Source: Octopus vulgaris (Eukaryota). Taken from it: a stretch of DNA of 64,000 nucleotides. The notes beneath the pieces were generated by a model. The model made no database searches and had not been told where the DNA came from. It saw only the letters and a list, made by a program, of their open reading frames with translations. The number at the start of each line of letters is the position of its first letter. Position 1 is the first letter of the stretch. The DNA lies in the NCBI GenBank assembly GCA_951406725.2, contig OX597824.1, positions 75,950,001 to 76,014,000 of the forward strand, read 5' to 3'. Both the position numbers and the translations under genes were made by a program. This document shows positions 5,797 to 35,603 of the stretch, one piece after another.

Positions 5797-6895
5797 GTTA
5801 GATTAGGTAACCATGTTTCGCAAATGAAATAGGAAACGCAGCGTTGAGAAACTTGAAAGTATTCTTTTAGAGCTCGTTTCTTTTAATTAAACTCCACCAG
5901 CAATTGAAAAGATGCATGTTTGCATGATGACAATAGCACAGATGACAACAGTGATGATGAGGAAGATGGCATTGAGGATGATGATGACGATGATGTTCTT
6001 AGCTTAAGTGGCTGTGTTTTTGAAAATATACATCGGGTTTAACAAGACTTTGAAGGATATTCTACATACATTCTTGAAAACAAATATGCTTTTAGTTTTG
6101 ACTGATTTCTCCCCACCCCTCTCTCGCACACACATCTCCCCACTACCAACCATTACTCATCTATGTATTTTCTTTGCATTCACATTCTCATGTTTCAAGT
6201 AATATTTATCAAAACAATGATCTCCTTATAGCTTTGTCGTTTCATTTAATTTTTTAGTATTTTCATTTCATCTTAATATAATTTACTTCATGTATGTGTG
6301 TGAGCACGCGCGCACGCGCAGATAGATATGTAAGTATATATGATAAAAAAAAATTCTACAAAAATCCTACTGTACCATTTCAATTTGAATGAGAATTGAA
6401 CAGATTTTGTTTTTCTTTTTTTTTTATTTTCATATTTTATTCTTTTTTGGCAAAATCAAATCATCTAATGCAGTCTTTTACTTAAGATAAGATTCTCATC
6501 TTTTGACTTAAAAATATATTTGAGCAAACAATATTTTTTTTTCAAAGAATAGCTTCAAATAACACACATTTTTGAAAATTTAAGCTTAGGTTGTTTTTGA
6601 CTTTTTTTTATTTATTTTCTTACCCCTTCTCTTTCTCTTCCCCTTGCTTCTTCTAAGACTTAATCCATAACAATAATAGAGCATGGAATGATTCTTCGAA
6701 CACAATGTTGTTTGAAAATATGAATAATTTTTTCTTTTCTTTTTCCATATATATAATTTCCATGTAGTGGCACTTTTATTTCTTACTGAAAATTCTTCAA
6801 ATTTGCACTGTTTTTGTGTAAGACTGTATTGGTTAAATATGCATATGCAGGAGTATGTGCACACAATTGTGTGTATATCTCTCTACATATATATA

Positions 6896-6939
<44 letters not shown>

Positions 6940-7200
6940 CACTTACACACACTCGTGCACACCCATAAACACATGTGTGAGCACATAGGTGCAAAACAAG
7001 ATGGAAATATAGTCCCTTAATACCAAAGATTGAATAATAATGGTATTTTGTTTAAGCTGTAAAAACTTTGCAAACTGTTATTTAGAGTTTCATGTAACAG
7101 ATCATCAGACAATCATGACCCACTGATGATCTATTGTATGAAACTCTGCATTACAGTTTGTCGAGTCTACATGTACGAGGTGTAACTATGGCAGATAAAA

Positions 7201-7614
7201 GGCGGCGAGCTGGCAGAAACGCTAGCACGCCGGGCGAAATGCTTAGCGGTATTTCGTCTGCCGCTACATTCTGAGTTCAAATTCCGCCGAGGTCAACTTT
7301 GCCTTTCATCCTTTCGGGGTTGAGTAAATATGTACCAGTTACGCACTGGGGTTGATGTAATCAACTTAATCCATTTGTTTGTCCTTGTTTGTCCCCTCTG
7401 TGTTTAGCCCCTTGTGGGTAATAAAGAAATAGGTATTTCGTCTGCCGCTACATTCTGAGTTCAAATTCCGCCGAGGTCAACTTTGCCTTTCATCCTTTCA
7501 GGGTTGAGTAAATATGTACCAGTTACGCACTGGGGTTGATGTAATCAACTTAATCCATTTGTTTGTCCTTGTTTGTCCCCTCTATGTTTAGCCCCTTGTG
7601 GGTAGTAAAGAAAT
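7201..7614 (+). mobile_element. Family B SINE with tandemly duplicated 3' unit
   Basis: Head at 7201; the unit restarts at GGTATTTCGTCTGCC (about 7432). Approximately 22-bp imperfect TSD aggt(g/a)taactat(g/a)gcagataaa at 7178-7199 and 7615-7636. Confidence 0.9.
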
Positions 7615-7931
7615 AGGTATAACTATAGCAGATAAAGTACCAGACCCTTGTGAGTAATGTTATTTTTGTTGAGGAGAAGGGCAGGTTTTGGGCTTCATCA
7701 GTACCTACCTATCCTCTGGGTTAGAGAGAACACACTTTGCAATTAGTTTATTCATTTGAGTAGCCTTTTGAATATAAATATACAGTGGAACCCTGATTTA
7801 AGAATCTAATTCATTCCTGAAGGCTGTTTGTCACTTGAACTGCTCCTAGACCCAAACTATTTTTTCTGATGGAGACTCAAGAGAATCTAAAATGCTTGTA
7901 AACCAAAACTATTTTTCCCATTGGAAACCCA

Positions 7932-8308
7932 TTGGTCAAAAGCATTTCTTTTATGCTGTTTCAGTACACTTGCCAATCATTTTATATAGTTTTATCAGTT
8001 TATCAATCATTGGACTGTGGCCATGTAGATAGCATGACAAGTGTTTAAATCCGTTAGTGGATGCACTGTGTAATGGGAAATTGAAGCAGCAATATGGACT
8101 GAGTGAAAGTTAGACCGCAACTGAGACTCTCTTGCTGATGCTTCTAGCTTCTTGTCAGCCATTGTTCCTAGCTTGTGTGTTTGTTACTTGAGACACGTAC
8201 GTCATGCGTGAAGTTTTATGTTTAAAAAATTGTTCATAAACCACTTGTTCATATTGAGAAGCATTTGTAAATCAAGGTTGTGTGTGTGTATGTATGTATG
8301 TGTGTGTG

Positions 8309-8356
<48 letters not shown>

Positions 8357-8589
8357 GTTCAAATTTACAGAAAACAAAAGGCGGAGACAAGTGTAGGAAC
8401 AACAAGCAAGTGTATTAGTTTAACGCTTGGGAAGAATGGAAAAGTCTTTTACGGTTTGAACCTACTCTCTTCATCAGAAAGGATTAAGAGGTTAAAAAAA
8501 AAAAAAAGGAGAGAGAAAATAATGTGTTGAGATGAATGGTTCAACAGTGAGAGGCTGATGAATGAAAGATATATGTGCGTGTGCGTGCG

Positions 8590-8634
<45 letters not shown>

Positions 8635-8649
8635 GTATGTGTGTGTGTG

Positions 8650-8691
<42 letters not shown>

Positions 8692-9222
8692 TGTCCATGT
8701 GTAATTGTATTTGAATTATTGATAATTCAATTTTTTTTTGTCACTCCTTAATGATACACTTTCAATGCATAATTCTGATTAGTATATACATGCACACGTG
8801 CATACACATTCCCCCTCTATCTCTCCCCTTCTTACACTCCCACATGAATTTTTTTATTGTTTTCTTCATATGCTTCACCTGTATTTTCCTTGTCCTTTTA
8901 TTGTTGATATTTCCCCCTTTCATTCCTTTGGTGGTTTATTGACTTTTACAAAAGTGCATTTGTGTGGTCGACTTTTTCAAACGATCTGTAAGTGTTGCTG
9001 ATAGTAAGACATGTAGCCTCTTGTTTTCTTGCACCCAATTGACTGAAGAAGAATTGATCTGTTGATCCTATCAACTTTTGTCCTTCACTGGTCAAAAGTA
9101 CTTTTATGCTGTTTCAGTACACCTGTCAATTGTTTTATAGTTTTACCTATATCAATCATTGGACTGTTGCCATGTAGATAGCATGACAGTGTTCAAATCC
9201 ATCAATAGAAGCATAGTGTAAT
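7932..9222. repeat. Dispersed direct repeat of about 140 bp (7932-8075 and 9089-9222)
   Basis: tggtcaaaag..cttttatgctgtttcagtacac..atcaatcattggactgt.gccatgtagatagcatgaca. Confidence 0.75.
8955..8987 (+). CDS. Candidate 33-nt frame-preserving micro-exon
   Basis: Long upstream pyrimidine-rich tract, AAAG acceptor at 8951-8954, consensus donor GTAAGT at 8988-8993, length divisible by 3. The phase-2 frame reads AFVWSTFSND. Confidence 0.3.
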
Positions 9223-9256
9223 TAACTGATGGTTTCAAAGGGCTGAGCGTTCAAAT

Positions 9257-9575
9257 AGGTGCAGGCATGGCTGTGTAGTTAAGGAGTTGGTTTCCCAGTT
9301 ACATGGTTTTGGGTTCAGTCTCACTTTGTGTCACGTTGGGCAAGTGTCTTCTACTATATATTTCTTTACTACCCACAAGGGGCTAAACACAGAGGGGACA
9401 AACAAGGACAGACAAAGGGATTAAGTTGATTACATCGACCCAGTGCGAAACTGGTACTTTATTTATCGACTCCGAGAGGATGAAAGGCAAAGTTAACCTC
9501 GGCGGCTGTAGGTTGACCTAATCCCTGTGATTGGATTTGGTAGATGTAAACTAAAAAGAAGCCTGTCATAAATGT
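9257..9575. mobile_element. Family A SINE (+) interrupted by a family B SINE fragment (-, about 9361-9505)
   Basis: Head ggtgcaggcatggctgtgtag, then the reverse complement of the family B tail and core, after which family A resumes. Confidence 0.75.
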
Positions 9576-10539
9576 ACATGTGTGTTTGTTTCATTGCCTT
9601 GACATCACGTGATAGCCGTAAATGAGCTTCACTGTCATACAAGCAGTGTTGATTGTGTGCAGTTTTCTATGTAAACATGACTGGCCATGGGGGGGAAATG
9701 TTATCTTACTTGGAAACAGGTGAGGATTGGTGATAGGAAGGGCATAACAGATTCCATCTGACATGCAAGCCCAGAAAAATGGGCTTCAAAAATGGTGGGG
9801 CAGGGGAAAGATAATGATGAATAAATTATAGCTTGGAGAAAGCAAGAAGTCTTTAAGTGCTGTTCTTAATCATCATCATCCTTTTAATGTCCATTTTCCA
9901 GACGGGCATGGATTGGATGGCTCTTATGATCAACAAACATTTTCAGTAACAGTTAAATTTACTTTTATATAGTTTTCTTTTCTTTTTCTGTTTTTTTTTT
10001 TTTTTTTTTTTTAAACTCAAAAGTATGACCAATTCCATGCATCATTTTCACCATTCTTTTGGGCCAGACAAACCTTATTGAAGCAGTTTCTCTATGGCCG
10101 CAGGCCTTTCCTGTTGCCAGCTCTCATCTCATGGCAGATTGCAAATGATGACACCACTTGCATGGTTGATGACTAAATCAGCATGTCGCACACATGCACA
10201 CGCATATGTGCATGCATGCACACACACACACACACTTCTTACAGTTACATCTACCTATTCCACTCACAAGAAATTGGTTAGCTCAAGGCCATAGTTAAAG
10301 AAACTCTAGGCAGAGCTTGGCTCAGGGCTATACTTGAAGACAGTTGCCTTAGGTGTCATGCAATGGGATTGAACCTGAAACCACATGGTTGCAAAGTAAG
10401 CTGAACAACACAGCCAAGCTGGTCTGTGTTCTTTTATTAAAGTGTCAGCCTATCAATGCCACTCGTGTGTAAAAGCCACTTAAATCATTAATGATTGCCT
10501 CTTAATTAAATGCATTCAATTGTCGAAAGATTCTTTCTT

Positions 10540-10922
10540 TCTTTTTTCTTTTACTTGTTTCAGTCATTTGACTGCGGCCATGCTGGAGCACCGCCTTTAG
10601 TCAAGCAAATCGACCCCGGGACTTATTCTTTGTAAGCCCAGTACTTATTCTATCGGTCTCTTTTGCCGAACAGCTAAGTGACGGGGACGTAAACACACCA
10701 GCATCAGTTGTCAAGCAATGTTAGGGACACACACACACACACACACATTTACATATATACGACAGGCTTCTTTCAGTTTCCGTCTACCAAATCCACTCAC
10801 AAGGCATTGGTCGGCCTGGGGCTATAGCAGAAGACACTTGCCCAAGATGCCACGCAGTGGGACTGAACCCGCAGCCATGTGGTTGGTTAGCAAGCTACTT
10901 ACCACACAGCCACTCCTGCGCC
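10540..10922 (-). mobile_element. SINE family A
   Basis: Near-identical to 3196-3613. Confidence 0.9.
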
Positions 10923-11492
10923 TAATTACATAATTATTTTTATGCTTCCAATGGAAATAAGTTGGCAAAAACAGTCAATAAATACATTGTGAACTACTGT
11001 TTAATTCCAGTCTTAAGCAACATTATTGAAACGTATTTTATCACAGTTTTGTTTCTTGTAGTGCTGTTTGTTCTTGTTCTTGTTCCGTTTTGTGTCGTAT
11101 TTCATATCTTTTGCTGTTCATGTGAAAGAGAACCTGGTCTGCATTTGTTATGAGTGTAAATGAAATAATTCACGCACAATGATGGTAATAATAATAGATC
11201 TGCCTACTGGAACCTTGAGTGTTTGATAACGATATCTGTACTACTAGCTCTGCACTTAATACTTACTGAGCATTGTATATTTTTAAGTAGTCTTCATTTT
11301 GGTATTTTAAAACAAATAAATAAACAAAAAAAGTATTTAAAAATTATTTTTTATTATATCATTTAATGAATTTCTTTTAATTGTTTTAGTAATTTGTGGA
11401 ATATTAATGAAAAATATACCCTTTAAAATACACAAATTTTTTATGCTCTTATTACATTTTTATATATAGTTATTTTTCATATAAGGTTTTTG

Positions 11493-12236
11493 GGATCTTT
11501 ACCTTTTGACCGACAGATTTAGAAAATAATTTTTTGTAACTAAACACTTTCAAACTTCGTATACTGGTAGAATGTGTCATATAAAACATCTTTTACTCTT
11601 AGTGTTTTTGAGAAAAGTTTATGTTTACGAAGTTATTTCATTTTAAAGTTGTCGTATTTCGGTAATTTCAACCAATCAATGACGTGTATTCAGCTGAATA
11701 AAATCACTGCTGTTGTTTGTCAACAAGAACTTCCGGCGGTGTATATTTCGTTTGTCACTGTTATTTATGACATATTTCATCTCATTTACGTTTGTATGAA
11801 TAAACGAGTGTATCTGAAGCATGTTTACTTCATGACACCACCATAATCGTTTGTGCTTCATTTTTCATTTTTTTCCGTAACTCAAACCCTAACCCTAACA
11901 CTCTAGCCCTAACCCTAAAACCTTAAAGCTCAAACCAGTACAAATATGTGAACAATGTCATACATAACAGTGACAAACGAAATATGCACTGCCGATAGTT
12001 GTTGTTAACAAACAACGGCAGTAATTTTATTCAGCTGAATACACGTCATTGATTGGTTGAAATTACCGAAATACGACAACTTTAACACGAAATAACTTCG
12101 TAAATATAAACTTTTCTCAAAAACGCTAAGAGTAAAAGATATTTTATATGACACATTCTACCAGCATATGAAGTTTGAAAGTGTTTAGTTACAAAAAATT
12201 ATTTTCTAAATCTGCCGGTCAAAAAGGTAAAGATCC
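11493..12236. mobile_element. Long-TIR (foldback-like) MITE with 8-bp TSD
   Basis: Ends GGATCTTTACCTTTTGACCG...CGGTCAAAAAGGTAAAGATCC with about 270-bp imperfect inverted arms. TSD GGTTTTTG at 11485-11492 and 12237-12244. Central (AACCCT)-like repeats. Confidence 0.9.
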
Positions 12237-13817
12237 GGTTTTTGTTTTTTGGAGAGTAAAAAATTTAAGAAAAATAAGAATAAACTTCCATTATATATAT
12301 ATGGACATTTGTTTAAATTTGAGATACTCTTTATATTGCATTAGAAAACAGTCATGTCTTACTAAAATTGGATTCTATAACTTTGTTTTAGATTTATTAT
12401 TAAATTACTTTTTCCTTATTTATTTTTCCTAAATCCTTTTTCTGTATAAATCCAACTATTTATTTATTTTTTTGCATTCATGTGTTGTATATGTTTAATT
12501 CTATGGGGCAGCTTGAAAAAGGAGTAAATTACGAGTGACACTAAGTTTGTATAAATTATTATTGTCTTTTCTTTTCGTTACTGAAAAAAAAAAATACAAA
12601 ACAAAACAAAATGGAAAAAAAAAAACTAAAAGAATTTTTTCTTGACAAAAGTTTTTTTAAAAATTTCAAGTAGATGTTAGTAGAATTGCTGCTTGATGCA
12701 AATTTAGTATGAGTGTAGTGTGTGCATTTATGTGTGTATGTATATGTATATCTCTATGTATGTATATATTTATATACACACACATACAAACACACATGCA
12801 TACTGTATTTCTTCTTTCCACTATGCTGTTGTTTATTATATACTGCCCAGATTTTCTTCATGTCGTATAAAAAAATGAAATTTAAAAAAAGGGGAATTAA
12901 ATGTGCAATTTAAAGGACCTAATCTGTCTTTAGCTGTGTGGTGCTAAAGAGTATTTCGAACCATTTTCCTCTGTCTCTTTGTCAACTGTTGTTCTTTCCA
13001 ATATATATATATGTGTGTGTGAGTGTGTGTGTGTATATATATTTGGCTATTTGTTGTATTTGTTCAACCAATTGCTATGGTTGTCTCTCAATTTTATCCT
13101 TAAAACTTTAGCCATTGGTTTCGTCCACTGTTTCTCGTTAATGTGCTCTGCTAGCAACATCTATAAACGAAAATGTAGTCGTATTAGTAGTCATAGTAGT
13201 AGTAGAGTTGTGGGTAGGTAGTTACATGTTTTCAATTTAAAGAAAATAATTGCAGCTATGTACATTTTGTTCTTGTATTTTTTCTTTTGATTTTTCATTT
13301 TTTCCTTAAACAGAAGGATCACCATGTGCTTATCAAAGTACTCAAGTACCAGCTAGTAGGATAGAGTTAGAAAAACATACAGGGGAAAAAATTTCAATAT
13401 AAAGTTGATGTACATATACATAAACTTAGATTGACATTACTTTTTATCTTTTTGAAAGATGATGAATTAAATATCAGGCTATTAGCGCTGAGGCTGATAT
13501 AATTTATTTTTCAGTTCCAACACACCATAATCTTGGATCTGATCCATCTTCAAATTTATGCAGTTCAGTAATTTACATGTGTAATAGAAAGTAGTATCAT
13601 TTGTTATTTTGGTTTTGGATGTCAGCAAGTTAGTGTGGAAACCGTTCGGTTGTTGCTTGTCTTTCCACAAGATACTGGTATATATCCCTCATATTGTACA
13701 ATTCCATGTGGATAAAAGGACTTCTTGGGTATTTGGGATGGAATGCCTTTGATCATAAGTCTAGTCTATCAGAGTTGAAGGTGTGCCAAGTAGCCGTTGC
13801 TGCTGCTGCTGCTGCTG

Positions 13818-13857
<40 letters not shown>

Positions 13858-14707
13858 AACAACAAAGTAGTGAAAAATTGCATTCAATGTTAATATTATT
13901 TAGCAGTAACCTCATTGTGCTATTTAATTTCATTCTCCATAGGTTCCACGTAACAGCTACATATTCCACTTCTGTTGTCTTTTGTTACGCTTTGAATGTA
14001 TTTTTCTGAAAGCCAGAACCTGGAAATAGTAGTCACCTAGCAATGTGAAATGATAAACTCCGCACTAAGAAGTTACTATAATCTCTCTGAAGTGCCCCCA
14101 TTTAAAAAGGAGAAATTGTGTGTGCATGTATACACTTACATAAGTGAATGTTTACGTATGGCTGAGTGATTACCAAGCTTGCTTTGCAATCACATGGTCC
14201 CAGTGGTGACTCACTGTATGGTTACTTGTGCAAGTGTCTTTTACCACAGCCACTAGCAATGCCTTGCTAGTGAAATGTGGTCGCCGGATTCTTCACAGAT
14301 TATTATTTCAAGTTTCTTGTTGCCGATCTCTTGACAATTATGTAAATCAGAACATATCATTTCATATACATTGAGTGTACAGTAAAATTGAATAGCTTTA
14401 GTGGATGCTGCTTGGGTGACATGGAATTAACAAATGCATGGTTGAAAATGTAACTGTTTTTTTGAAGTGGGCATGCAAAATTAGGATAATTGATGGAGAG
14501 CAGTTTGTAGTTGCCATAAGCATTTACTTGTATATATGAAAGAAAATATATAGAGAAAATTGCATGCATATACCAAAAAAATCCCCCCCGAAAAGAACCT
14601 CCCCCCCAAATAACAGCACAAGGGAAATAGCTTGTGGCGATTCTCTTTAAAAAGCAGGGATGAAAAAAAAAAAGTTTTGCTAGATTTTGTTGTATTGGTG
14701 TTTGTAG

Positions 14708-14826
14708 ATTTTGCTGCTTCAATCAACTATTTGGAGAGACGGTTCTTGCATAAGAATTTTGAAGAATGTCTACAGTCAGCGATCAATTCTGAATGTTCAA
14801 AATTGTTTGGTTACCACAGGGCATAG
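14708..14826 (+). CDS. Candidate short terminal exon resembling the C-terminal half of a BEN domain
   Basis: Acceptor tttgtag|AT. The phase-1 frame reads DFAASINYLERRFLHKNFEECLQSAINSECSKLFGYHRA*, matching by eye the BEN pattern 'AI..YL...F....W..I..AINSKC'. No N-terminal BEN half was found in the window. Confidence 0.35.
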
Positions 14827-15589
14827 TGATAATGTTTTTTGTAATCATGTGGCATTACCTTATAATGCAATGCTTGTTTTCTTGTCTTCACTAGTCCTCC
14901 TCTCTGTATATATCCACACACTCTTTGTTTTGTTTTTTTTTCATATTAAACCGAAAAGTCGTAATTATTACTTTGTGTAGAACAGTTTAGAGTTTTGCAT
15001 AATTTTTTTCTCATGTAAGGCAATCAGATCTATGTTCCAAACCACAGTCTTGTTCAGTTGGCCTTTTTCTCAACTGTACACATTGGCGAATTGAGAAGAA
15101 ATCATTGTAAAATGTGATCACTACCTCTTCGTGTTATGTGATTGTTGAAGTCACTTGTTTAAGGTAACCAGTTAGTGTCTTTTTTCTTTGAAAAATATCT
15201 GACAAATGTCATTAAATTTGTTTGTTCTGTTGAGGATTGGTGTAGTAGTGTGGTGATTGATATGGGATTTCTCTATAAAACAGAGGTTACTGAAATGAGA
15301 TCTGTTCCTAAATGCTGGTGCTCCATTTACTGTTGCTCATATAATGCTGGTAGTCTCTTCTTGGTCTTTTATTTCCAAACATACTTAAAAGATACTGTAG
15401 TGTTCTCCAGATAGCAGTAATAACTTGAGCTGATGTTCTGGTGATGTTCAAGAACTCAGGGATCAGCAAACCTTTCTTCTCAGTTCTCTGTGTGCAGTTG
15501 ACCAAAATGTTGATTAAATGAAACCTCAATTTGGATACGTAACCACTGTATATCCCTGTATATACATACATACATAACTATTTTCTGCA

Positions 15590-15975
15590 TGCACTGTATT
15601 TTTCCAAAAGAAGTGTGTAGTGATGTAACTTGGGCATTGAATGTAGAGGATGTGCTAAGCTTGAAAAGAAATGTACACATGTTTTCCTTGGATGTGTAAT
15701 GTTAGTATGCATGACTGGTGGTTTACAAATGAGTTGAGAGAAAAATTAGGATTAAGTGGAATTGGTTGTAGTGCACAAGAGAGAAGACTGCACTGGTGCA
15801 GGCACGTAATGCCAATGGAAGATGACAATTGCATAAAGAAGTGTTAAGTGATTCAAGAAAAAAGTTCATGGAAAATATGGGAAGAACTGAAGGCTTATTT
15901 CAGAATTGTGGACCTTACGAAGGAGATGATGATGGACTACAACAAGTAGTAAGAAGTTGTGCTAGAGAAGGGCCG
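15590..15975 (+). mobile_element. Degenerate RTE-clade LINE 3' fragment
   Basis: Similar to 20640-21070, for example ttggatgtgtaat and caagagagaagactgcactgg. Confidence 0.6.
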
Positions 15976-16257
15976 TCTTACTCATGGAAGCATGGAGAAA
16001 ACTGAATTAAAAATGGTGATATTAATATGTACTCAAGATTGAATGGATCTTTCTATTTGACTATTTGAACTACATAAAGGACTAATTAAATGGTTTAAAG
16101 TGTGGCACTAATTAAAAATCTTATCGAGGTTCCAATAATTGACATGAACTATCAATCTTTTACCATCATTTTGCATGATTCTTTTGTGAGCATTAGTTAG
16201 GATGTGGTTGTTTGTTGAATTAATTTTTGTAATTTTATTGGTGTTGTTTTTAATTTT

Positions 16258-16329
<72 letters not shown>

Positions 16330-16822
16330 CTCTGTTTATTATTCATTGACTGTTACAAAAGATTTTGACATGATCTATGAAATATAGTCATGGGAATGGA
16401 CATTCTGAGCCACGACTGTTCCCTTAGGAATTAACTGTCCCTTTGATAAAGGAAGAGAGAATATGGTTTGCCATTATCTCAAAGCATACTTTATTGAGCA
16501 TTATTTTCTGGTAACTTAGTGGAGTTATTTCTGGGAAAATAATGTTTGAATATTTGGCCGCGATTTGAAACAAAACCACACACACACTCATGCACACGCA
16601 CATTAAATATTAGTCAACATAGTGATATTGTTGAAAGGGAATTCAGTTTGTAATTATGTTGGTCATGCAGGTGAAGCGCTTACATTGAATATCGATTCAC
16701 TATTTTGGTAACATTAGGAGGTTTTCCAAGTTTTGCAATTGGAATATTCTAATTAATCTAATTTTGTTCTATTTAAACAGTTCCTTGTAATCTACCTTAG
16801 TTCTAACCATCATTCTCCTTAA

Positions 16823-17046
16823 CCCCTTAGCATTTAAACTGGTCATACCCAGCCCAAATACTCTACCGGTTTTATATTCAAATCAACCAGAGTTAGCCTC
16901 TCCTACTTATCCTATGATATCATTCTAAAAATAAACAGTTGCATCATCAAAAATCTTGGAACCTTTGAGATAAATGCATGAGTAATTCAAAACGATGTGA
17001 ATAAATATGCATTATATTTGATGAAATAATCTGAATGCTAAAGGCT
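16823..17046. mobile_element. piggyBac-like MITE family copy (about 220 bp)
   Basis: TTAA|CCCCTTAGCATT...AATGCTAAAGG. Related copies at about 1697-1919, 22936-23148 and 24508-24718. Confidence 0.75.
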
Positions 17047-17112
17047 TTCAATGTCAAAAAATTATTTTATATAAATTGTTTTTAGAGCGTCCTCTATTTT
17101 TTTTTCTTTTTG

Positions 17113-17528
17113 AATCTCTCTTTTACTCTTTTACTTGTTTCAGTCATTTGACTGCGGCCACGCTGGAGCACTGCCTTTAGTCGAGCAAATCGACCCCGGG
17201 ACTTATTCTTTGTAAGCCCAGTACTTATTCTTTTGGTCTCTTTTGCCGAACCGCTAAGTGACGGGGACGTAAACACACCAGCATCAGTTGTCAAGCAATG
17301 CTAGGGAGACAAACACAAACACAGACACACAAACACATACACACACATACATATATACATATCTACGACAGGCTTCTTTCAGTTTCCATCTACCAAATCC
17401 GTTCACAAGGCATTGGTCAGCCCGGGGCTATAGCAGAAAACACTTGCCCAAGATGCCACGCAGTGGGACTGAACCCGCAACCATGTGGTTGGTTAGCAAG
17501 CTACTTACCACACAACCACTCCTGCGCC
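17113..17528 (-). mobile_element. SINE family A
   Basis: Near-identical to 3196-3613. Confidence 0.9.
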
Positions 17529-18025
17529 TATGTTCAAAATACTCTCATTTCAAAATTCTCTCATTTCCTCTCATTACTATATAGATAATCTTTCATTCAT
17601 TGTTTTTATTTCATACTCTACTACTACACACTCATTAGTCATCCCTTCTCACTTCATTTAATTCGATTTTAAGATTTTTAACCCATTGCTCTCAAATTAA
17701 GTTTCATCTTCATCAGCCCCGTGTAATCTAATGTTTTTCTGCGTTAGTATATTGATTGGCTTTTGTGTAGAAAGTAATGCAATTATTTAAACTTTGTAAA
17801 TGTATTTATGGCCTGCTTAATACTTATGAACATCATTACCGCTGCCTTGGAAACGTGATTTAGCTTCTAGCCGTGTGTGTGTGGATTTAGCTTGAATGGT
17901 TTCAATTTTGTTCTGATTGCGATAAAATATTTTTTTATACCAGAAAAAAAAAAATAACAGGCCTCATCTGTTTGCTGCTGTCCACAATTGCTGCCTTCCA
18001 AATTTTAAATAAATATTATATATAG

Positions 18026-18085
<60 letters not shown>

Positions 18086-18692
18086 TATACATACATATAC
18101 ACAAAGCCTTTGACTTGTTGCCATCTAAGGGTTTTTTTGCCCAATATTCTCACTTATTATTTGTAGTTTTATCAACTTCAACTTCCTCTGTAATATCTTG
18201 GCCAGCCCCATATCAAACTGTCCAACCCATGCCAGCATGGAGAATGGACATTAACTGATGATGATTATTATGATAATGATGATGATATATCAGTTCATCA
18301 GTGTTTTTGTTTTTGCAAGTTTCAGATTGTTCAAAGTAAATAATAAAGAAAACTGAATACACTTCATGTTATGATATTTTAATTTAGAAAGGAAAGTTTG
18401 TGAAAATGTCAGTTTGTGTGGTGATGATTTCTTTGGTGCTAGTTTGACTTGCTTTCATGTCTATCAACAGAGAAAAGCTCAGGCTTTTTTTTGCTTTTCC
18501 CCCTCACCCATATCAATTGTAGAAGTTTAAAGTTAAGAGACAGAGCTCTTTCTGCGTGGCCTAGATAAATTTCAGCAACAGGTTCTTAGCGATAGTTTGT
18601 TTCTGTCTATACGTATGGTCAGTTTCCTTGATCTTTTCTGACATATTTGTGTCAATCAAAAGAATCTTTTTACCCATTTAGCTGTCTTTCTT

Positions 18693-18723
<31 letters not shown>

Positions 18724-18896
18724 TGTTAATCCCAGTGCAGTTAATCTGGTAGAGAGCTGTTGGTTTGCCATTCAAGCTGCCTCATTCTTTATTTTAAATG
18801 TTAAATGATATTTGTCTGTACTTCTTCATTCAGTTTAGTTTTCCTTCCACCTGTTGCTGTATTTCGATCCGAATTTTTTTTTCTTCTCAATATCAG

Positions 18897-19926
18897 GTCC
18901 AAAGCCGATCGACGGAAGTTAAAAAAATACAGTGAGGATATACCTTCATGGTTGTCGACAGATTTCAAGAGTAACTTTCGGATGTCGTCTGTGACGTTTT
19001 GGAAAGTGTTCAGCTACCTGCGTACGTGTCCTGAAGCAATTGAGATGGCACGAGGGAGCCAACCAGAGACCTTGGAAAAAAGTTTGTTATCTGTTCTATG
19101 GTATATGGGTTCCCAAGATACTTTGTCAGAAATCTGTCAACGTTTTTCAATCAGTGAAGAGTCTTTCCTTAATCGCCGTAGTAAAATAGTGAAAGCTCTT
19201 CTTTCTAAGTCAAAAGAGAATCTCATACGATGGCCTGAGAAAGATGCTGACAAGCAGATTATAGCACAAGAATTTGAGACTCTGAGTAATTTAAAGAATG
19301 TTATTGGTGTTTTGGACACTACACACATTCAGGTGAAAGCTTTAGACAATGATAGGGAGAAGTTTTACAATAAAAACGGGTACTACTCGGTGAAGTTAAT
19401 TGCTGCCTGCCAGCGGGATATGAGGTTTATATTCTGTTCAACTGGACACGCTGGTCGTCTCCATGACTTTCAAACTCTCATTGATAGCCACCTTCTGGAG
19501 CGTGGTGCACACTTGTGCAACTCGCACCATTTGGTTGGTGACGCTGCCTTCCCTCTGTTCGATTGGTTGATCACACCTTACACCTCTGAGTCGAAAACAG
19601 ACGCTCAACAGTATTACAACAGTTGCTTGATGACTGTCCAGAAAGTCATTACGCGCGCCTTCGGCTTGCTACACGGACGGTTCCGCCGACTGAAGGTCAT
19701 TGAGTCTACGAATCTCAGCACCATTGTGGATATAATTCACTTAGCGTGTGTTCTACATAACTTCTGTATTGGCTGTGATGACATCGGTGAAGAGTACATG
19801 GTATACGAAGTAGAAGACGAAGGGGATGATTCCCTACCGGTGACCAACTTGCCCCCACTCCCCGACAGTGTCAAGATTAAGAGAGACATTATTTGCCGGA
19901 ATCTTTCTATTGGAAGACACCGTTAA
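18897..19926 (+). CDS. HARBI1: Terminal coding exon encoding a PIF/Harbinger transposase-derived (HARBI1/ALP1-family, DDE_Tnp_4) protein; probably domesticated and catalytically altered
   Basis: Uninterrupted frame of about 343 codons with Harbinger motifs: DFKSNFRMS..TF, HTH region (LLSVLWYMGSQ..LSEICQRFSIS), IRWP, IGVLDTTHI (D at 19315), FYNKNGYYS, GRLHD, LVGDAAFPL..WLITPY (D at 19540), YN..ITRAFGLLHGRFRRL, ACVLHNFCI, acidic tail, KRDII. Preceded by a polypyrimidine tract and acceptor (tttttttttcttctcaatatcag|G, phase 2). The symbol is a family-level label; orthology to vertebrate HARBI1 is not established. Confidence 0.9.
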
Positions 19927-20169: not shown

Positions 20170-21075
20170 AGTTATAGCTCAATTAAGAATGGAATTAGAT
20201 TAGATGAGCTACAGTTTGGTTTTGTGCCAGGGAGAGGTACCACTGATGCCATCTTTTTAGTAAGACAATTACAAGTGAATTATTTAAGTAAGCCACTAAA
20301 TTTGGCATTCATCCACTTGGAGAAACCTTTTGACAGAACCCTTCGTTCTGTGATCTGGTGCTCTCTGAGGAAGCTAGCTTGTGAGAGCCATACATGCCCT
20401 GCACTGGCATGTATATATTGGGGGTGCTGTTAGTAAGGTGAGATTTAGCATTGAGTACAGTGATATTCAATGAATCTGGAGTAGAAATAGAAAAGAAATT
20501 CTAGGTGTAGAAGCAAAATCTGGAATCAAAGGGCCTTAAGATTAACTTATCAAAAACCAAAGTTCTAGTTGCTAGGAAGATAAGTAGGACCCTATTCCCT
20601 CTCTTGGTAACAAAAGGTCTCTTTCAGAATAAAAGGAAGATTGTATGATGCCTGTGGGCAGCAGTGGTTGCTCCATGATAGTGAGATGTGGGCCCTGAAT
20701 GCAGAAGGTATGTGAAGTCTAGAGAAGAATGAAGCTAATATTACTCTGTTGGATGTGTAATATCTGTGTGCATGTATAACAAAGTGCAAATGTGTTGAGG
20801 GGGGAAAAAAAGGCATGAAAGGAGTTAGGTGTAACATACAAGAGAGAAAACTGCACTGGGTTGGCTGTGCGATGTGAATGGATGAGGACAGCTATATAAA
20901 GAAGTGCTGATCAGAACCTAAGTGATCAGCACTTAAAATGGATGTAACTTATGGAAGAGGGAGACCCTGAAAGACATTAGCTAAATAGTGAAGGTTTAGC
21001 TCAGGATGTTGAGCTTCATGTAGGAAATGACAAAAGGATGAAGATGATTGGCAATTCTCTGTGCTTGGGAAGACC
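20170..21075 (+). mobile_element. Degenerate RTE-clade LINE fragment (RT region to 3' end, internally deleted)
   Basis: LDELQFGFVPGRGTTDAIFLVRQLQ..AFIHLEKPFDR motif, followed by decayed RTE C-terminal motifs (GSEMW-like, LHW.G, GRGRP). Confidence 0.8.
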
Positions 21076-21637: not shown

Positions 21638-21857
21638 CTTCACCCTTATTCATTACTCACTACATTCACCTTTATTCATTACTCACTACATTCACCTTTA
21701 TTCATTACTCACTACATTCACCTTTATTCATTACTCACTACATTCACCCTTATTCATTACTCATTACATTCACCCTTATTCATTACTCACTACATTCACC
21801 CTTATTCATTACTCACTACATTCACCCTTATTCATTACTCACTACATTCACCCTTAC
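21638..21857. repeat. 26-bp minisatellite (about 8 copies)
   Basis: Unit cattcacc(c/t)ttattcattactcacta. Confidence 0.9.
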
Positions 21858-22935
21858 CTTCGTCTCTATCATCCATTACTTTTCTCTCTCACTCTTATGA
21901 AATCGCCCATTCTTTCCTTCACCCCTATTCTGTCTGTATTCTCCTTTATATTCATCTTATACCTTGAAAGTATATCCTGACACCCTTTCATTACCATCTT
22001 TATCTTCTTTCCAGTTAGTTCCACCCACCTTCGTATCATGCAGGGTAGCCATATATCTCATCCGTAGCAAAACTTGTGCTTGTCCCTCTATCATACTTTT
22101 AGCCTTTCAACAGCTGGCACAAAACCACTCCCTTTCTCTCAAATAGGACTCCTACTCTGTAGGGTGTGGGTTGGGGTTCTTCTATTCTAGTTACTTGTAA
22201 GTTCCTTGGTAATTTCCCCAGTGCTGGTGTTGTTGGAAAAGCACCGAGTGCACCCTGTAAAATGGTTGGCATTAGAAAGGGCATCTGTCTGTAGGAACCA
22301 TGCTAAAGCTGATATTGGAGCTCAATGCAGTGTTGAAGCTCGTTAGATCCTGTCAAACCGTCCATCCCATGCTAGCATGGAAAAGGGACGTTAATTGGTG
22401 ATGGTGATATAAATATATAAACATAAATATACACACACATACACACACATACAAGGCATACATGCAAATATACATATATATTTATGTATATAGATATATA
22501 GGGTATCTAGTGTATATATGTATGTGTATGTATAAAATCTGAATAAATGACGGTAAACTAATCTGTACAATATTAGTATACTAAAAATAAAGAAGAAAAT
22601 AAATGAATAAAATTTGGTAATTAGTTTTTTTTCTTTTCATATGCTATTTTCTTATAGTATTTTTTCCACTACATTTGTCCATTTTTTTCCACCATTGTTT
22701 TGTTCCTTTGTTGTTTCTATTTGTATGTTCAAATGGCGGTGCCCCAGCATGGCCACAGCTCATGAGCTGAAACCAGATAAAATAAAATTTAAAAAAAAAT
22801 AGTTTAAAGAAAAGAAAACGAAAGCATTTACATTCTGGGTCCCTTTAGGGTGCTGTTTAAAATCCTGTCTTTGCATATTTTATTTTGATTTATCAGGTTG
22901 ATGCGGAAATAACTATAGTTTTTAACAGTCAACTC

Positions 22936-23189: not shown

Positions 23190-23615
23190 GCATCTTTTTG
23201 GTTTGAACGGCAGTTTTTTCTTGCAGTGTCTTATGAAATTGTCACCCATAATTATGACCCTAGTATCGATCTATTGCATTTCAATCTGGTTAGAGTTAGG
23301 GTTAGTTTGGGGGTGGAGGGAAGGGTATCTTTTTTCTTCAGAAATATAAATAAACCCAATTTGTTTCTTAAACGAGGGACATATTCATACAGCACAGAAT
23401 GTTTTCACCTCAATAGATGTCATTGATTGGTTGAAATTGCAGAAATTGAAAAAACAACAACAAAACAACAAATATCTTACAAACTATAGAATTTTCTCAA
23501 TAAAGCCAAGAGAAAAAGATGTTTTATAAACACATTCTACTAGTATACGAAGTTTAAAAGTGTTTAGTTACGTGGAAATTATTTTTAAAAACTGCCGTTC
23601 AAACAGAAAAGATCC
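23190..23615. mobile_element. Related MITE with 8-bp TSD
   Basis: Ends G(C/G)ATCTTTT.GTTTGAACGGCAGTTTTT / AAAAACTGCCGTTCAAACAGAAAAGATCC. TSD AAAAAATA on both sides. Shares subterminal sequence with 11493-12236 and has internal GGGTTA repeats. Confidence 0.85.
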
Positions 23616-24718: not shown

Positions 24719-24911
24719 CTTTCGATGAATTTTAAAATTAACGACATATAGTAAAATAATTTTATTATTAAGCTGATGTTTGGAACAAATTAGCATGAAA
24801 ATAATTTGTTTTTTTTTCATAATTAAGTTTTAATTTTGATCACTTTATAACAGGAAGTCTGTGCAATAGAACCAAAAATGATCTGACAGTTTGGTATCAA
24901 AAGGGGTAAAC

Positions 24912-25360
24912 CTACATTAAGCTCATGTGACATACATTCAGCCTCATGTAACATACAAGCCCATGTGATATACATTCAGCTCATGTGACATACATTCAGC
25001 TCATGTGGCATACATTCAGCCTCATGTGACATACATTCAGCTCATGTGACATACATTCAGCTCATGTGGCATACATTCAGCTCATGTCACACATCTCATG
25101 TGGCATTCGGCCTCATGTGACATACATTCAGCCTCATGTTACATGCATTCATCTCATGTAGCATACATTCAGCCTCATGTGGCATACATTCAGCTCATGT
25201 GGCATACATTCAGCCTCATGTGACATACATTCAGCTCATGTGGCATACATTCAACCTCATGTGACATACATTCAACCTCATGTGACATACATTCAGCCTC
25301 ATGTGGAATACATTCATCTCATGTGGCATACATTCAGCCTCATGTGACATACATTCAGCC
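24912..25360. repeat. 19/20-bp minisatellite (more than 20 copies)
   Basis: Unit cagc(c)tcatgtg(a/g)catacatt. Confidence 0.92.
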
Positions 25361-28714: not shown

Positions 28715-29444
28715 TACTACTACTACTACTACTATTGCTACTATTGCAGGTTTTGAAACTATTTTGGTTGTTTGTTGCAAGGAAAATGAAAAATGTAGTT
28801 AGATCTCAAACTAGAAGAAAAACTGGAACTGTTGGACACCTTCTCTTCTAGATTTATGCCTTCGCAAAAAGCAAAATGCTTATTATTACCCCCCCCCCCC
28901 CAAAAAAAAAAACAAAAACAAAAAAAAAACAACATAATAATAATGGACATATATCATTTAACATTTTCATGAGTCGAATGCTTTGTTCATTTGTTTGTGC
29001 AATTTTTTTTTTACAGCTGGATGTCAACACGCTTCTCAAGATATGCAAATAAAAAAATTTTTTTTTTTGAATGGAACCTGTTGGTTTAACCTAGGCTAAC
29101 TGAAGCAAGTAGGGGTTGTTTACGTCTCTTTCTAGTTAGCATTTGCCAGAAGTGAGGTTTCTAATTTTAGGCAGAGGGCCCACAATTTTGAGGGAAAGGG
29201 TAGTAAGCTGATATCATTGACACCCCACTCCCTGTACTTGACTAAATTGACGCTGGCTGTCAAGCAGTGGTGAGGTGGACGGACGCACGCACGCACGCGC
29301 GCGCGCACGATGGGCTCATATCGGTTTCTGTCTACTAAATCCACTCACAAGGCTTTGGTCTGCCCATGGTGCCACACAGTTGGACTGAAACCATAACTAT
29401 ATAGTTAGGAAGCAAACTTCTTACCATACTCACACATATTTGCA

Positions 29445-29888: not shown

Positions 29889-30629
29889 TATATATATATA
29901 TATATAAGGAATAGAGTAATTTCAACAATTGAGAACTCAGTACAATGGTGTTGGATTCAATCATCACCTAATGATATTAATCCATTTCTGTTTTGTGGTA
30001 GTAATGGAGAAGCAAGTCAGAATAATTCTTGATTTAATCTCGGTGCATTTGTTTAGGCATTTACATAAAATGTATTCTGCTTTTCCTTTTAAATTTAAAT
30101 TGTTTAGTGCATGTTTATGCCTATTCTAACAACATATGACACAACTCTGCTTCATGAAAGCATACAAAGCTCACTGTTAAAAAATAATATAAATAGATTG
30201 CTAAACATTTTCAGTGAATCCAAAGAAAGATTCCCTACTTAACACTCTTATCAATATTTTAATTATGCATTTACATTTTAAACATTTCAATGAAACATAG
30301 TTGGTTTAATAACTGAGATATTAATTTTACTATGCAAGACAAAGCTACATATGAAGATAATGCATTTCTCTTCTTCATTATTACTGTTGTTAGTTACATA
30401 AATATATAAGCATGGCTGTATGGATACAGTTTGTTTTGTACCTTTGTGCTTGTGAGTTCTATCTCACTGTTTGGCACCTTGAGTGTTTGTCTTTTCTATT
30501 GTAGCTTTGGGCTGACCAGTGACTTTGTTCGGGAGAATTGTTAGATGGAATTTGTATGAAGTTTCTCGTGTTGGTGTGTCTTTCTTTGCATTGGTGCCAT
30601 TTGAAAATTAAAGTATAAGAGGTGATCAT

Positions 30630-31660: not shown

Positions 31661-33176
31661 GCGAGAGTATATATAATACAGAAATACTTTGCAGACTGCA
31701 ATAGTCAATAAAATAGAAATAAGGTTTAAGAATTTATTCTTTCTTTGTGGTCTGATACCAAATGATCCATGGCCTGTTACTGGTTCACAGCATGGTGTTA
31801 GGGGAACTCCGCATTTGAGAATTGTTTGGAGTTCACTGTGGCACTTTTGATTCGTGTATATATGCTCTCTGTCCATTCTGTTCAGTCTTACAGCATCTGC
31901 TCAACCTTGATCAAGACCCATGCTATGTATATATTCTCGGATAAACAATTACTGCATCGAGATCCATAATTGTGTATTTGCTAAACCATCCGGTGTTAAG
32001 GACAATAATGCACCTTCTGATTTGAGGTTGTTAATTGTTTAATTAGCCTGTTCCTTAATGAAGTTAGGTTTCACATACTATATTAAGGTCTTTAATTGAA
32101 TTTATTTCTGGTTGTTAATCAATCATTAATCAACCTATGTTTATTGTTAATGATGCTTAGATGAGTCAAATTATAAGAAAATGTTAAAAATAGAAAGGTT
32201 TTGCATTTGGATGATATTCTAGCATGGAAGCAATAATAATGTTTGGTGGTTGTTGTAGGAATTAGAATTATTGACATTTAGGTGTTCCTTTACATTATGG
32301 TTGTAAACTCGAAGGGATAAAAGAATATAAGCTGAAACCATTTACAGAATATACAGGCACTGTTTGCTTTGGGACCATGTGGTTTCAAGTTCTGTCCTGC
32401 AGCTCAACATGGGCAAATGTCTTCTTCTATTGCTGCAGACTGACCAATCCTTTGTGAGTGAATTTGTTGGCAGAATCGTTAGCAAGCCAGGCAAAATGTT
32501 TTTCACGGCATTTAGCTTGTCTTTATGTTCTGAGGTCAAATTTCTGCTGAGGTCCACTTTGCTTTTCATCCCTTTGGGGTCGATAAAATTAATTATAGGA
32601 ATACATCAACTCTGGTCATTTGCTGTGGGATTTCAATCCAGGATGCCAGGGTGCCCTAAAAGAGATTTTTGACTGTTGCAAACTTTTGGTTTTGTCGTGG
32701 AATTCCTTTCTCTGTAGAGAAATTAAAATATGGTTTGCCTTTATTTCTAGAGTAGTTTTGGAGTTCTCCATCTTCATCATCTTCATCTTGTACTTTACCT
32801 GATGGGGGTGGGAGTGGGGATGAGAACCAGTGTATGTATAGGCCGTGGTGGTGGTGGTGGTGTTGGTGAAGGGGAGGGTCCTTCACTTTGTATTGAAATC
32901 GATTCATAGTGGGTGGTTGTTGGGGAGGCATCTTCTAATTTGTTGTAAACACACTTCTCACAATTTCGCACACTTTGAAAGCATGCGTTCGTACACATAC
33001 ACCACTTGCTTGCGTATACGCATGCCAATCAATTCAAGCACATGCTCACAGACAGATATTGATAGCTATTTAAAGTGATGCTGTAATTACTGAATGCAAC
33101 TTAGCATGTTATATGCCATCAGTTGTCACGGCAACAAGCAACTATTTACAACAGCAACACCAACAACAATTATGCT

Positions 33177-33207
<31 letters not shown>

Positions 33208-33351
33208 TAATAATGGTGTCTGTTTGCACGTCTCCAATAATAATAGAATGTTTGTGTCTGCAATTGAAATTTACTGTTGAAATATAATTAGTGTTCCATC
33301 AATTAATTTTAAACGAGAAAATTTTGTTAACTTATAAGTTTTCGCTTGCAG

Positions 33352-33421
33352 AGGTGAATTGAATATAGAATGCAGAAATTGGGAAGAAATTGCTTTGTTC
33401 CTTGATAACGCTAGTCACTGA
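33352..33421 (+). CDS. Candidate short phase-2 terminal exon (GELNIECRNWEEIALFLDNASH*)
   Basis: Acceptor ttttcgcttgcag|A. Only the phase-2 frame stays open, the same phase as the HARBI exon. The stop codon falls in an adjacent SINE remnant. Confidence 0.25.
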
Positions 33422-33561
33422 ATTGTGGCCATGCTGGAGCACTCCCCTCAATTATTATTATTATTATTTTTTTTTTTTTTTTTTGGAGCCTGTCTCATTG
33501 CTCCAATGTTAGTCAAGTGTTTCTTCTGAGTAGTTAAGTTGTTGTTTGATGTAAAGAGACA

Positions 33562-34015
33562 CAGGTGGCTGTGTGGTTAAGAAGTTAGTCTCTTGACCAT
33601 GTGGCTTTGGGTTCAGTTCCATTGCGTGGGACCTTGGGTAGTTGTAATTATTATAGCTCGTGGCCCTGTGGTAAGTAGCTTGTTTACCAACCACATCGTT
33701 CTGGGTTCAGTCCCACTGCGTGGCACCTTGGGCAAGTGTCTTCTACTATAGCCTCAGGTCAACCAAAGCCTTGTGAGTGGATTTGGCAGACAGAAACTGA
33801 AAGAAGCCCATCGTATATATGTAAATATATATGTGCGTGTATATGTTTGTGTGTGTGTGTTTGTCCCCCCAACATAGCTTGACAACCGATGCTGGTGTAT
33901 CTACGTCACCGTAACTTAGCAGTTCAGCAAAAGAGACCGATAGAATTAGTGCTAGGCTTACAAAGAATAAGTCCTGGGGTCGATTTGCTTGACTAAAGGC
34001 GGTGCTCCAGCATGG
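33562..34015 (+). mobile_element. SINE family A (a head fragment followed by a near-complete copy)
   Basis: Two A/B-box heads at about 33565 and 33660, then the family body. Confidence 0.8.
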
Positions 34016-34814
34016 TTAACTGCGTTTTGAAGTCTGACGTTCATGCTGGTAATGATGGTCCGGGCTATATTATACATAGTTTACTCGGTTCAGTAAGGTG
34101 TCATCCAAGCTGATGTTTATTGGTAATTAAACTTAATTTGCAATACCTGTGCATATTTATCGGTTTTGTTTTTGTTGATAATTCTTGTCAACACCTTTTC
34201 CTGTGATTGTGATTTGAGAAGACATACAGCAGTATGCTAAAGATGGGACATCATCTCTTGTGGGCAACAAATGTAAAATAAAGTTTATTATAAACAACAC
34301 TTTGTAATTTAGTAGCTTTTAATGTGATACCTGTGTTAAACAGAAATTATTTTTACTTAATGGAAATTTAATAGAAATCTTATAAGTAAGTGAAATTATG
34401 CTAAATAGAACTAAATTGAAAACCTTTTTCCCCTAGCCATATTGGCAATTCTGAAAACTTTTGGGTGTGAATTTTACACGAGTAGAAGTTTTTTTTTAAC
34501 ATTTTTATCCTGAAAATGGTATATACATTGAAAATATTTTGCTTAGGCATACCGATACTAATAACCTGGTGTTAGAACTCAGTATCTATATGCTTCAGAA
34601 TAATGTGTGGCTGTGTACGGAGCATAATATGAAATTAAATAAATGACCAAGGAAGAGAAATTTATTCAATAAACTTCATTAGCTTACAACTGTTTCTGCT
34701 GTTTAAGATGCATGAGCACTCAGAGCTGAGTGGTTTTGCATCACCTTATAGCTTTCTCAGAGCTTCTAAAATGAAGTGTTAAGTTTTTTGTGAAAACACA
34801 CACACACTGTCTCT

Positions 34815-34849
<35 letters not shown>

Positions 34850-35603
34850 CCCTCTCTCTCTTTCTCACACACACACACACAGCTGTAATGGATAAGAAAC
34901 TTGTTTCCCAGCCACGTGGTCATCAGATCGGTCCCACAGCACGTTGGTCATATGTCTTCTAATACAACCCTGAGATTTGGTGGAGGGAAATCTAGTCTTT
35001 CAACTGAAATAATTAAATAAAACTTGACTGAAATTTTTATTATTTTTCTCACTATTTCTATGATGAAATTTCTTTCCTTTTCACATTAAATATTCTCCTC
35101 ACCTCTCCTGCTGTCTCTCCCAGTTCAGTATTTATCTGCCAGGCAGCCCCTTTTCTTGTGTGAAGTTGAAAGTAAAATAAAGAAGGAAAAACTAATTATT
35201 AGTTAATCATCTTGGCTATGATTCTTAACAATTGGCTGTGTTTATAATTAATTATAAAATAACAATTTTATTACTAATTAGTGTTTCTATTATTGCCAAA
35301 ACCATTACAACCAGCTTGGCTCCTCTCTTTCAAACATGGATGTTTCCAGCTCAATCGACTGGACCTTTTACTTTAGTCACTGGTCAGTCCCTATTAAGTA
35401 GACCTATGGTCAAAGGAATTCAGACCATGGTCATCCTGTTTGTCTAACAGTATATACTCCATAGTATATATCCAATGTTTCCTTTTCTGAGACTTTTTTT
35501 TTCTAAACATGCTTTGTGCATTCTTGTGCATCATTTTTCTTTCTTTGTTTCTTTCTCTTCCTTCCTTCCTTCCATCCATCCATCCAAAGTAGAAACAGTA
35601 CTG

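Follow-up and report, generated by a model that had tools for sequence, protein, structure and literature searches.

A Harbinger transposase-derived exon in Octopus vulgaris, possibly an alternative last exon of a host gene

A plus-strand open frame at positions 18897-19926 of a 64,000-nucleotide stretch of Octopus vulgaris DNA (GenBank assembly GCA_951406725.2, contig OX597824.1, positions 75,950,001 to 76,014,000 of the forward strand; hereafter the window) was found to be a real, intact and conserved terminal coding exon derived from a Harbinger transposase, and it is referred to below as the HARBI exon. An earlier sequence-only reading of the same DNA had placed this exon in an array of thirteen alternative last exons between 6.6 and 35.2 kb, resembling those of mod(mdg4) and lola and sharing one upstream donor. 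The explanation that we favour, tentatively and with somewhat less than even confidence, is that the HARBI exon is likely domesticated and likely serves as an alternative last exon of a host gene with its donor upstream, outside the window, and that most of the short candidates around it are likely chance acceptors.

The window is AT-rich animal DNA in which SINE-like (short interspersed nuclear element) repeats and microsatellites are dense. Masking by self-BLAST and a tandem-repeat search left 111 islands of at least 100 bases, 33,168 bases in total. The mask catches only repeats with a second copy inside the window, and old fragments of long interspersed nuclear elements (LINEs) remain unmasked; by eye we take such fragments to lie, for example, at about 1.0-1.4, 15.8-16.0 and 20.1-21.1 kb. 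Splice acceptors were scored with an approximate matrix of our own, built from general knowledge and not trained on this organism.

The HARBI exon, its relatives and its acceptor

18839-18896, plus strand: 3′ splice site of the HARBI exon, a 56-nt AG-free pyrimidine-rich zone ending in CAG
18897-19926, plus strand: Harbinger/HARBI1-type transposase coding exon, entered in phase 2, with 342 codons and a stop, carrying D140, D215 and T252 for D-D-E

The sequence-only reading had taken the frame at 18897 for a real terminal coding exon, and in this it was upheld: the frame is intact, follows a phase-2 acceptor, matches the Pfam domain DDE_Tnp_4 (E 8e-27) and has a conserved relative. Its closest database relatives are an unspliced copy at 99% identity and then the protein P0003, at 75% over 95% of the query, which is recorded with 8 members on 6 contigs. 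Below P0003, identity falls to 36% or less among the matches spanning most of the query; named or other relatives are only 24-36% identical, the nearest named proteins being HARBI-like proteins of abalone (28-32%). No published description of the exon was found in the open-licence literature.

The columns of D140, D215 and T252, which by recall of the family motifs we take to be the catalytic triad, were examined in an alignment of 77 rows. D occupies the D140 column in 70 rows and the D215 column in 74; the third column holds E in 60 of the 77 rows and T in the window frame and in P0003 (E252T). Of 60 columns conserved in the family, 15 are changed in the window frame, and at 10 of these 15, including E252T, P0003 has the identical derived residue. 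Such a pattern suggests that the nuclease activity of the protein has likely been lost. The structure predicted from a 100-row alignment reached a predicted local distance difference test (pLDDT) score of 92.3 and a predicted template modelling score of 0.91, an earlier model from a 6-row alignment having been poor (pLDDT 58). A Foldseek search with the pLDDT-92 model returned nothing at E 0.001, its best rows being weak and transposases, and a PDB sequence search with the frame gave no match.

When terminal inverted repeats were sought between 12.0-18.9 and 19.9-27.0 kb, only a SINE pair and chance matches of at most 18 nt were obtained. The Pfam scan covered 299 of the 408 listed non-repeat open reading frames (ORFs) plus the frame at 36668, the remainder being ORFs overlapping the HARBI exon, some short minus-strand ORFs and most of those beyond 44 kb; it gave six weak matches, all under their cut-offs, and no Myb/MADF partner frame among the 299 ORFs. 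The absent partner could be an upstream exon lying out of view. Set against the marks of domestication used in PMC9710019, the frame has an intact coding region and no inverted repeats detected, and the scanned ORFs included no adjacent Myb/MADF gene, which is frequent and not required. Judged from these features, the HARBI frame is probably an undescribed domesticated Harbinger transposase. Its ratio of observed to expected CpG (CpG o/e) is 0.85 within a domain of about 0.3, and G+C at third codon positions is 0.48; selection on codons may account for the high CpG.

The exon has no start codon of its own at the 5′ end, and its first methionine is M29. The residues ahead of M29 nevertheless have counterparts in relatives: the family motif aligns to residues 1-28 and P0003 to residues 19-28. 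Coding therefore begins upstream of the acceptor. The forms of the exon in the databases are unspliced or internally started only, the P0003 record beginning at an internal methionine. The acceptor itself scores 8.4, a value exceeded by only 2 of 790 background AGs. Ahead of the acceptor position, 47 of the 77 aligned rows carry an N-terminal part of at least 30 residues (median 48, 20% acidic) that is missing from the window. A further 12 rows have a short N-terminal extension, and of these P0011, P0012, P0013, P0016 and P0017, besides P0002, open with a run rich in F, L, I and C followed by S or R, the start expected if translation ran across a pyrimidine tract and its phase-2 AG. The acceptor and its intron thus appear likely to be native to the Harbinger lineage of this exon; were they so, phase 2 would stem from the element, and the upstream partner would be either the element's leader or a host exon.

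A search of 1-18897 for an acidic exon that opens with ATG and ends at a good phase-2 donor found none, so the donor should lie more than 18.9 kb upstream of the exon unless a weak cassette at 8955-8987 intervenes. An acidic frame at 5908-6039 was considered as the first exon of the element and was ruled out, having neither an in-frame ATG nor a phase-2 donor. In the family at large, P0030 and P0116 join a HARBI-type domain to extra N-terminal regions (Myb/MADF-like and THAP-like by eye); these are fused forms and not orthologues.

Short last-exon candidates measured against chance

At all 13 coordinates of the proposed array an AG precedes the exon start and the given phase-2 peptide is present. 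The remark that convincing internal exons with donors are lacking was also confirmed: no good plus-strand internal coding exon with a donor was found in 1-38 kb, where donors scoring at least 4 number 5 on the plus strand and 9 on the minus. The short exons as a set are what an AT-rich, T-skewed intron yields.

Acceptor-like sites were counted in the 16,790 non-repeat bases of 6.6-35.2 kb, with the HARBI frame and its acceptor excluded, and the counts were compared with Markov-2, Markov-4 and block-shuffle controls, all of them strand-aware. On the plus strand 38, 15 and 6 sites were observed at thresholds 3, 5 and 7, and the controls gave 39.5, 15.0 and 5.2 (Markov-2), 40.6, 16.0 and 5.9 (Markov-4) and 37.3, 15.9 and 5.3 (block shuffle). 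The sequence-only reading had itself named an acceptor density no higher than in composition-matched intronic controls as an outcome that would speak against its array, and this was the outcome obtained; an array of acceptors beyond chance is not supported. The plus strand does carry more such sites than the minus strand (38 vs 20, p 0.012; 15 vs 6, p 0.039), an excess due to T-skew, as the strand-aware controls reproduce it. The power of the comparison was assessed by planting typical acceptors in 25 simulations. With 12 planted, the counts rose to 24.1 (threshold 5) and 11.8 (threshold 7), and 0 of 25 and 1 of 25 simulations, respectively, fell at or below the observed count; with 4 planted, counts this low came up in 6 of 25 and 15 of 25. 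Four planted acceptors were not distinguishable, and a small number of genuine additional exons, or a larger number of weak exons, may be present.

The individual acceptor scores were 4.1 at 6658, -4.0 at 8955, -1.4 at 11129, 2.1 at 12851, 7.6 at 13314, 5.2 at 13943, -4.6 at 14959, 8.4 at 18897, 9.5 at 29017, 1.2 at 30002, 4.9 at 33352, 0.1 at 34437 and 3.3 at 35124. Only three of the twelve short candidates (13314, 13943 and 29017) reach 5, and another three (8955, 11129 and 14959) fall below 0. Five of the twelve rank within the top 25 of the 790 background AGs, the other 20 of which were absent from the sequence-only list. AAG acceptors occur at four of the twelve, which gives p 0.002-0.012 if AAG makes up 5-8% of real acceptors. 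AG-free zones of at least 40 nt stand at nine of the twelve, for which the candidates had been selected.

The sequences behind these acceptors were equally unremarkable as a set. Their phase-2 frames have a mean length of 12.1 codons and a median of 10.5, the background median being 10 (p 0.46), and the other two phases average 12.8 and 18.5 codons; the phase-2 frames being no longer than the others, nothing favours phase 2 apart from the HARBI exon. Codon scores, trained on the HARBI frame, were -0.228 in phase 2 against -0.223 for background (p 0.43), and 33352 alone of the twelve had a positive score (0.96). The median distance to the next poly(A) hexamer was 402 nt vs 432 nt for background (p 0.33), downstream AT content was 0.667 vs 0.641 (p 0.08), and one of nine untranslated-region (UTR) motifs was raised downstream (p 0.008, uncorrected). 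AATAAA occurs 26 times on the plus strand of 1-38 kb and 57 times on the minus strand, which does not depart clearly from the ratio expected from composition (p 0.15). No Pfam domain was found in any of the twelve, so that only one of the thirteen endings, the HARBI exon, holds a domain; in thirteen more frames searched at E up to 10, nothing exceeded its cut-off. Taken together, the short candidates bear no mark of coding sequence, UTR or poly(A) site; the mod(mdg4)/lola-like collection of about a dozen last exons that had been proposed is not supported, and most of the twelve are likely chance acceptors. One to three further last exons beside the HARBI exon might nonetheless exist, and the following candidates were retained.

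8955-8987, plus strand: weak candidate for a 33-nt phase-2/phase-2 cassette exon, with a 170-nt AG-free zone, an AAG acceptor and a GTAAGT donor at 8988
29017-29089, plus strand: candidate second last exon of 23 codons, with the top acceptor of the 790 AGs (9.5) and a poor codon score
33352-33421, plus strand: candidate last exon of 22 codons, acceptor 4.9, positive codon score, no Pfam match at E up to 10
35124-35181, plus strand: candidate last exon of 12 codons, acceptor 3.3, a 126-nt AG-free zone and AATAAA 12 nt past the stop
36666-36748, plus strand: candidate last exon absent from the sequence-only list, with a phase-1 frame of 26 codons (phase 2: 3 codons), close to where the low-CpG domain ends

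In-frame pairing of the kind seen at 8955-8987 occurs at 1 of 29 long-zone AGs on the plus strand and 1 of 12 on the minus, and is not significant. The next unmasked poly(A) hexamer after 29017 lies 1.5 kb past the stop. The frame 33353-33421 ends with a stop in SINE-like sequence, and the last ten residues of its peptide recall, in what we take to be a likeness, the catalytic motif of pogo/Tigger transposases. The 36666-36748 frame gave no Pfam or PDB match.

We regard it as unlikely that an upstream phase-2 donor is joined to about a dozen last exons, of which most would contribute 3-23 residues and one the transposase. Such an array could draw on the presence of every listed peptide, the long AG-free zones, the plus-strand surplus of acceptor-like sites and the few plus-strand donors; genuine alternative acceptors can be weak, and the octopus gene LOC106877732 offers a mirror-image precedent in the accessible text of PMC10027918. 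Yet the density equals that of the controls although 12 typical sites would have been detected, and the missing bias in phase, codons and poly(A) proximity, the single raised UTR motif, the four AAG acceptors and the absence of any domain in a short exon all argue against it. An octopus gene with an independently evolved mod(mdg4)-like cassette, in which many weak last exons in a giant phase-2 intron would supply short tails or a nuclease-dead Harbinger transposase, is improbable to the same degree. The broader idea that one gene swaps among many C-termini survives in part: at least two alternative 3′ ends are plausible, but a dozen endings are indistinguishable from chance.

The likely host gene body and competing explanations

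1-37300, plus strand: likely the body of one methylated host gene, mostly intron, judged from CpG o/e and T-skew, with no convincing first or internal coding exon
22586-22660, plus strand: predicted candidate 3′ end of the HARBI isoform, with three AATAAA (22586-22606) followed by T-rich sequence (T fraction 0.53-0.65)
37300-41500, no strand: CpG-rich zone, likely unmethylated and a promoter region at the boundary of the unit (CpG o/e 0.80, peak 0.99 at 37.9-40.1 kb)

Introns show an excess of T on the sense strand. In non-repeat DNA the T-skew was 0.10 before the HARBI exon and 0.09 after it to 37.3 kb, and CpG o/e was 0.34 (0.26-0.44) and 0.30 (0.24-0.38) over the same two parts; beyond 41.5 kb the values were 0.51 (0.40-0.62) for CpG o/e and 0.03 (-0.04 to 0.095) for T-skew. 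Octopus methylation falls on the bodies of expressed genes and is low between genes, according to the accessible part of PMC9476566. No convincing first or internal plus-strand coding exon was found in the window up to 38 kb. From composition, a single plus-strand gene body would extend beyond the HARBI stop by about 17 kb and beyond its likely poly(A) cluster at 22586-22606 by about 15 kb, and another 3′ end would therefore be needed, for which 29017, 33352, 35124 and 36666 are the candidates. The candidate poly(A) region at 22586-22660 falls inside the repeat mask and is weak for that reason; further AATAAA after the HARBI frame stand at 20628 and 22542, such hexamers being common by chance.

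The favoured explanation, an alternative last exon on a host gene, draws on the intact frame, the strong phase-2 acceptor, the 75% relative, the derived residues shared with it and the absence of detected inverted repeats. A Harbinger element would have inserted in a phase-2 intron, where its internal acceptor would exchange the short acidic first exon of the element for host exons. The nuclease would have been lost through the change of E to T, together with changes at R248, K259, Q168, R159 and K160, and the fold may have been retained, like those of ALP1 and HDP1, as a module for protein interaction or chromatin. Host transcripts would also be able to bypass the HARBI exon and finish at one other last exon, or a few, short of about 37 kb. 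The product would likely be a host N-terminus on a nuclease-dead Harbinger fold, working as an interaction module.

Several observations weigh against this explanation. No spliced or fused protein was found at 188-599 aa, at 600-2000 aa (a weak search) or among the best 150 of the 50% representatives. The argument from composition is an indirect one: its boundaries were set after the data had been seen, the T-skew intervals of 19.9-37.3 kb and 41.5-64 kb overlap, and CpG is depressed by old LINE fragments that escaped the mask. None of the downstream last-exon candidates stands out, and sequence cannot choose among them. As to the loss of activity, 17 of the 77 aligned rows have no E at the third triad column. 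Domesticated Harbinger genes with a two-exon structure of their own also exist, as reported in the available portions of PMC9710019 and PMC4671723.

This last point leads to the strongest competitor, which we consider doubtful though far from negligible: a domesticated gene, either two-exon or fused, would always end in the HARBI exon, and its first exon, the acidic leader of the element or a host exon, would lie more than 18.9 kb upstream. There would be no alternative ending, and an overlapping unit, a long UTR or read-through would explain the downstream signature. In its favour, the position of the intron seems native to the family, the downstream exons are unconvincing and there is a candidate poly(A) site at about 22.6 kb; in the accessible text of PMC9710019 the cockroach genes BPLG1/2 keep two exons, and their introns reach about 5.4 kb. 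The intron required here, longer than 18.9 kb, would far exceed those reported, however, and the gene-body-like composition extends about 15 kb past the candidate poly(A) site. It is improbable that the exon is a separate nested gene in the intron of another, with its own nearby non-coding first exon and translation from M29 (315 aa). The CpG o/e of the frame against about 0.3 around it, the internal methionine that opens the P0003 record and the lack of a known fusion would suit such a gene, but the alignment of the residues ahead of M29 speaks against it, and no promoter-like CpG zone exists in 1-18.8 kb. Least probable by far is a recent or still active Harbinger copy without a host role: its frame would be expected to be intact with little CpG decay, as observed, but E-to-T and nine more derived residues are common to the 75% relative, neither inverted repeats nor a Myb/MADF frame were found in the searches above, and the protein sets hold no family of near-identical copies.

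Some further features of the window were recorded. In the CpG-rich zone, a SINE copy at 39062-39291 holds 23 CpG, vs 12-15 in four other full-length copies. A plus-strand frame at 41600-41776 was considered as the next phase-2 exon of the host and rejected: its 59 codons run from AG to GT with no protein or Pfam match, and it lies beyond the CpG-rich zone. The PDB match of 41599-41776 (cruzain only, residues 141-182, E 5e-4) was taken as chance, and the frame is probably chance or a non-coding exon. The top-scoring acceptor-donor pair of the window, at 50627-50777 on the plus strand, has no full open frame and ends in an ATG-started stretch of five codons; it is likely the start-codon exon of a downstream gene. 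A MITE-like element (miniature inverted-repeat transposable element) at 11486-12237 has long inverted ends (288 nt at 93%) and a related copy near 23389, and two tandem minisatellite arrays, at 21640-21860 and 24910-25360, give long low-complexity ORFs. A plus-strand frame of 142 codons at 45181-45609 had no Pfam match at the cut-off; presumably it resembles the C-terminal end of a LINE protein. Rfam returned 99 matches at E up to 0.5, which we read as microsatellite or repeat artefacts; the sole one passing its gathering score was SNORA23 at 52130-52272, over a CA repeat.

Comparison with known systems and significance

By analogy, the HARBI exon would most likely work as a host-transposase fusion does. 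The closest model is CSB-PGBD3, a piggyBac transposase used as an alternative 3′ terminal exon in intron 5 of ERCC6, as described in the portion of PMC2268245 available to us. As there, a whole transposase frame stands directly behind an in-frame acceptor, with a stop and a candidate poly(A) signal, likely within a host intron; unlike CSB-PGBD3, the exon is of Harbinger and not piggyBac type, has no methionine near the acceptor and no element ends that were found, and its host and junction are predicted. Capture of transposases through splice sites supplied by the element is described in the accessible text of Cosby et al. (bioRxiv 10.1101/2020.05.07.082677), and use of an element's splice site would be common to both; unlike their survey, so far as that text goes, which concerns tetrapods and mostly DNA-binding domains, the captured protein here would be of nuclease type and in an octopus.

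HARBI1 and HDP1 are further domesticated PIF/Harbinger transposases. The exon resembles the members of this group treated in the available parts of their sources (ALP1, PMC4671723; insect APLG, LPLG and BPLG, PMC9710019) in its intact DDE_Tnp_4 frame, the lack of detected inverted repeats and the 5′ intron. The triad is altered in ALP1 (DGA) as in the HARBI exon (DDT), and in the sections of PMC4671723 at hand the altered triad of ALP1 is taken as lost activity. The exon differs from the group in that the 18.9 kb ahead of it yielded no first exon and the window no Myb/MADF partner.

With mod(mdg4) and lola the locus has in common only the idea of shared 5′ exons joined to alternative 3′ exons. 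The variable exons of those genes mostly encode domains, FLYWCH in mod(mdg4) and zinc fingers in lola, whereas here one exon encodes a domain and the others match chance. On the features tested, namely above-chance exons and domains in the variable exons, the locus is not of the mod(mdg4)/lola kind. For mod(mdg4) itself, the accessible portion of PMC13490949 describes trans-splicing from independent promoters; its 31 isoforms are proven by transcripts, and its exons lie on both strands, with clusters that have promoters of their own. Nearer in taxonomy, LOC106877732 of Octopus bimaculoides has, in the part of PMC10027918 available, two listed proteins with different transposon-derived N-termini (CENPB or THAP/Psq) on one BTB body. 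It too appears to swap transposon-derived domains between isoforms, though its variable part, in the same account, is N-terminal. Four window peptides had 0 matches in five supplements of that paper (long cells searched to 400 characters), and HARBI terms were absent from 13 of the 22 supplements of PMC9476566 and from the readable supplements of PMC9712504.

The array, if true, would matter far more than a single captured exon, and sequence supports it no better than chance. If the favoured explanation is true, the HARBI exon would provide an invertebrate, Harbinger-type case of host-transposase fusion by splicing, a phenomenon described mostly in vertebrates, and cephalopods would possess a transposase specific to their lineage and likely nuclease-dead, similar in kind to those at work in the chromatin complexes of plants.

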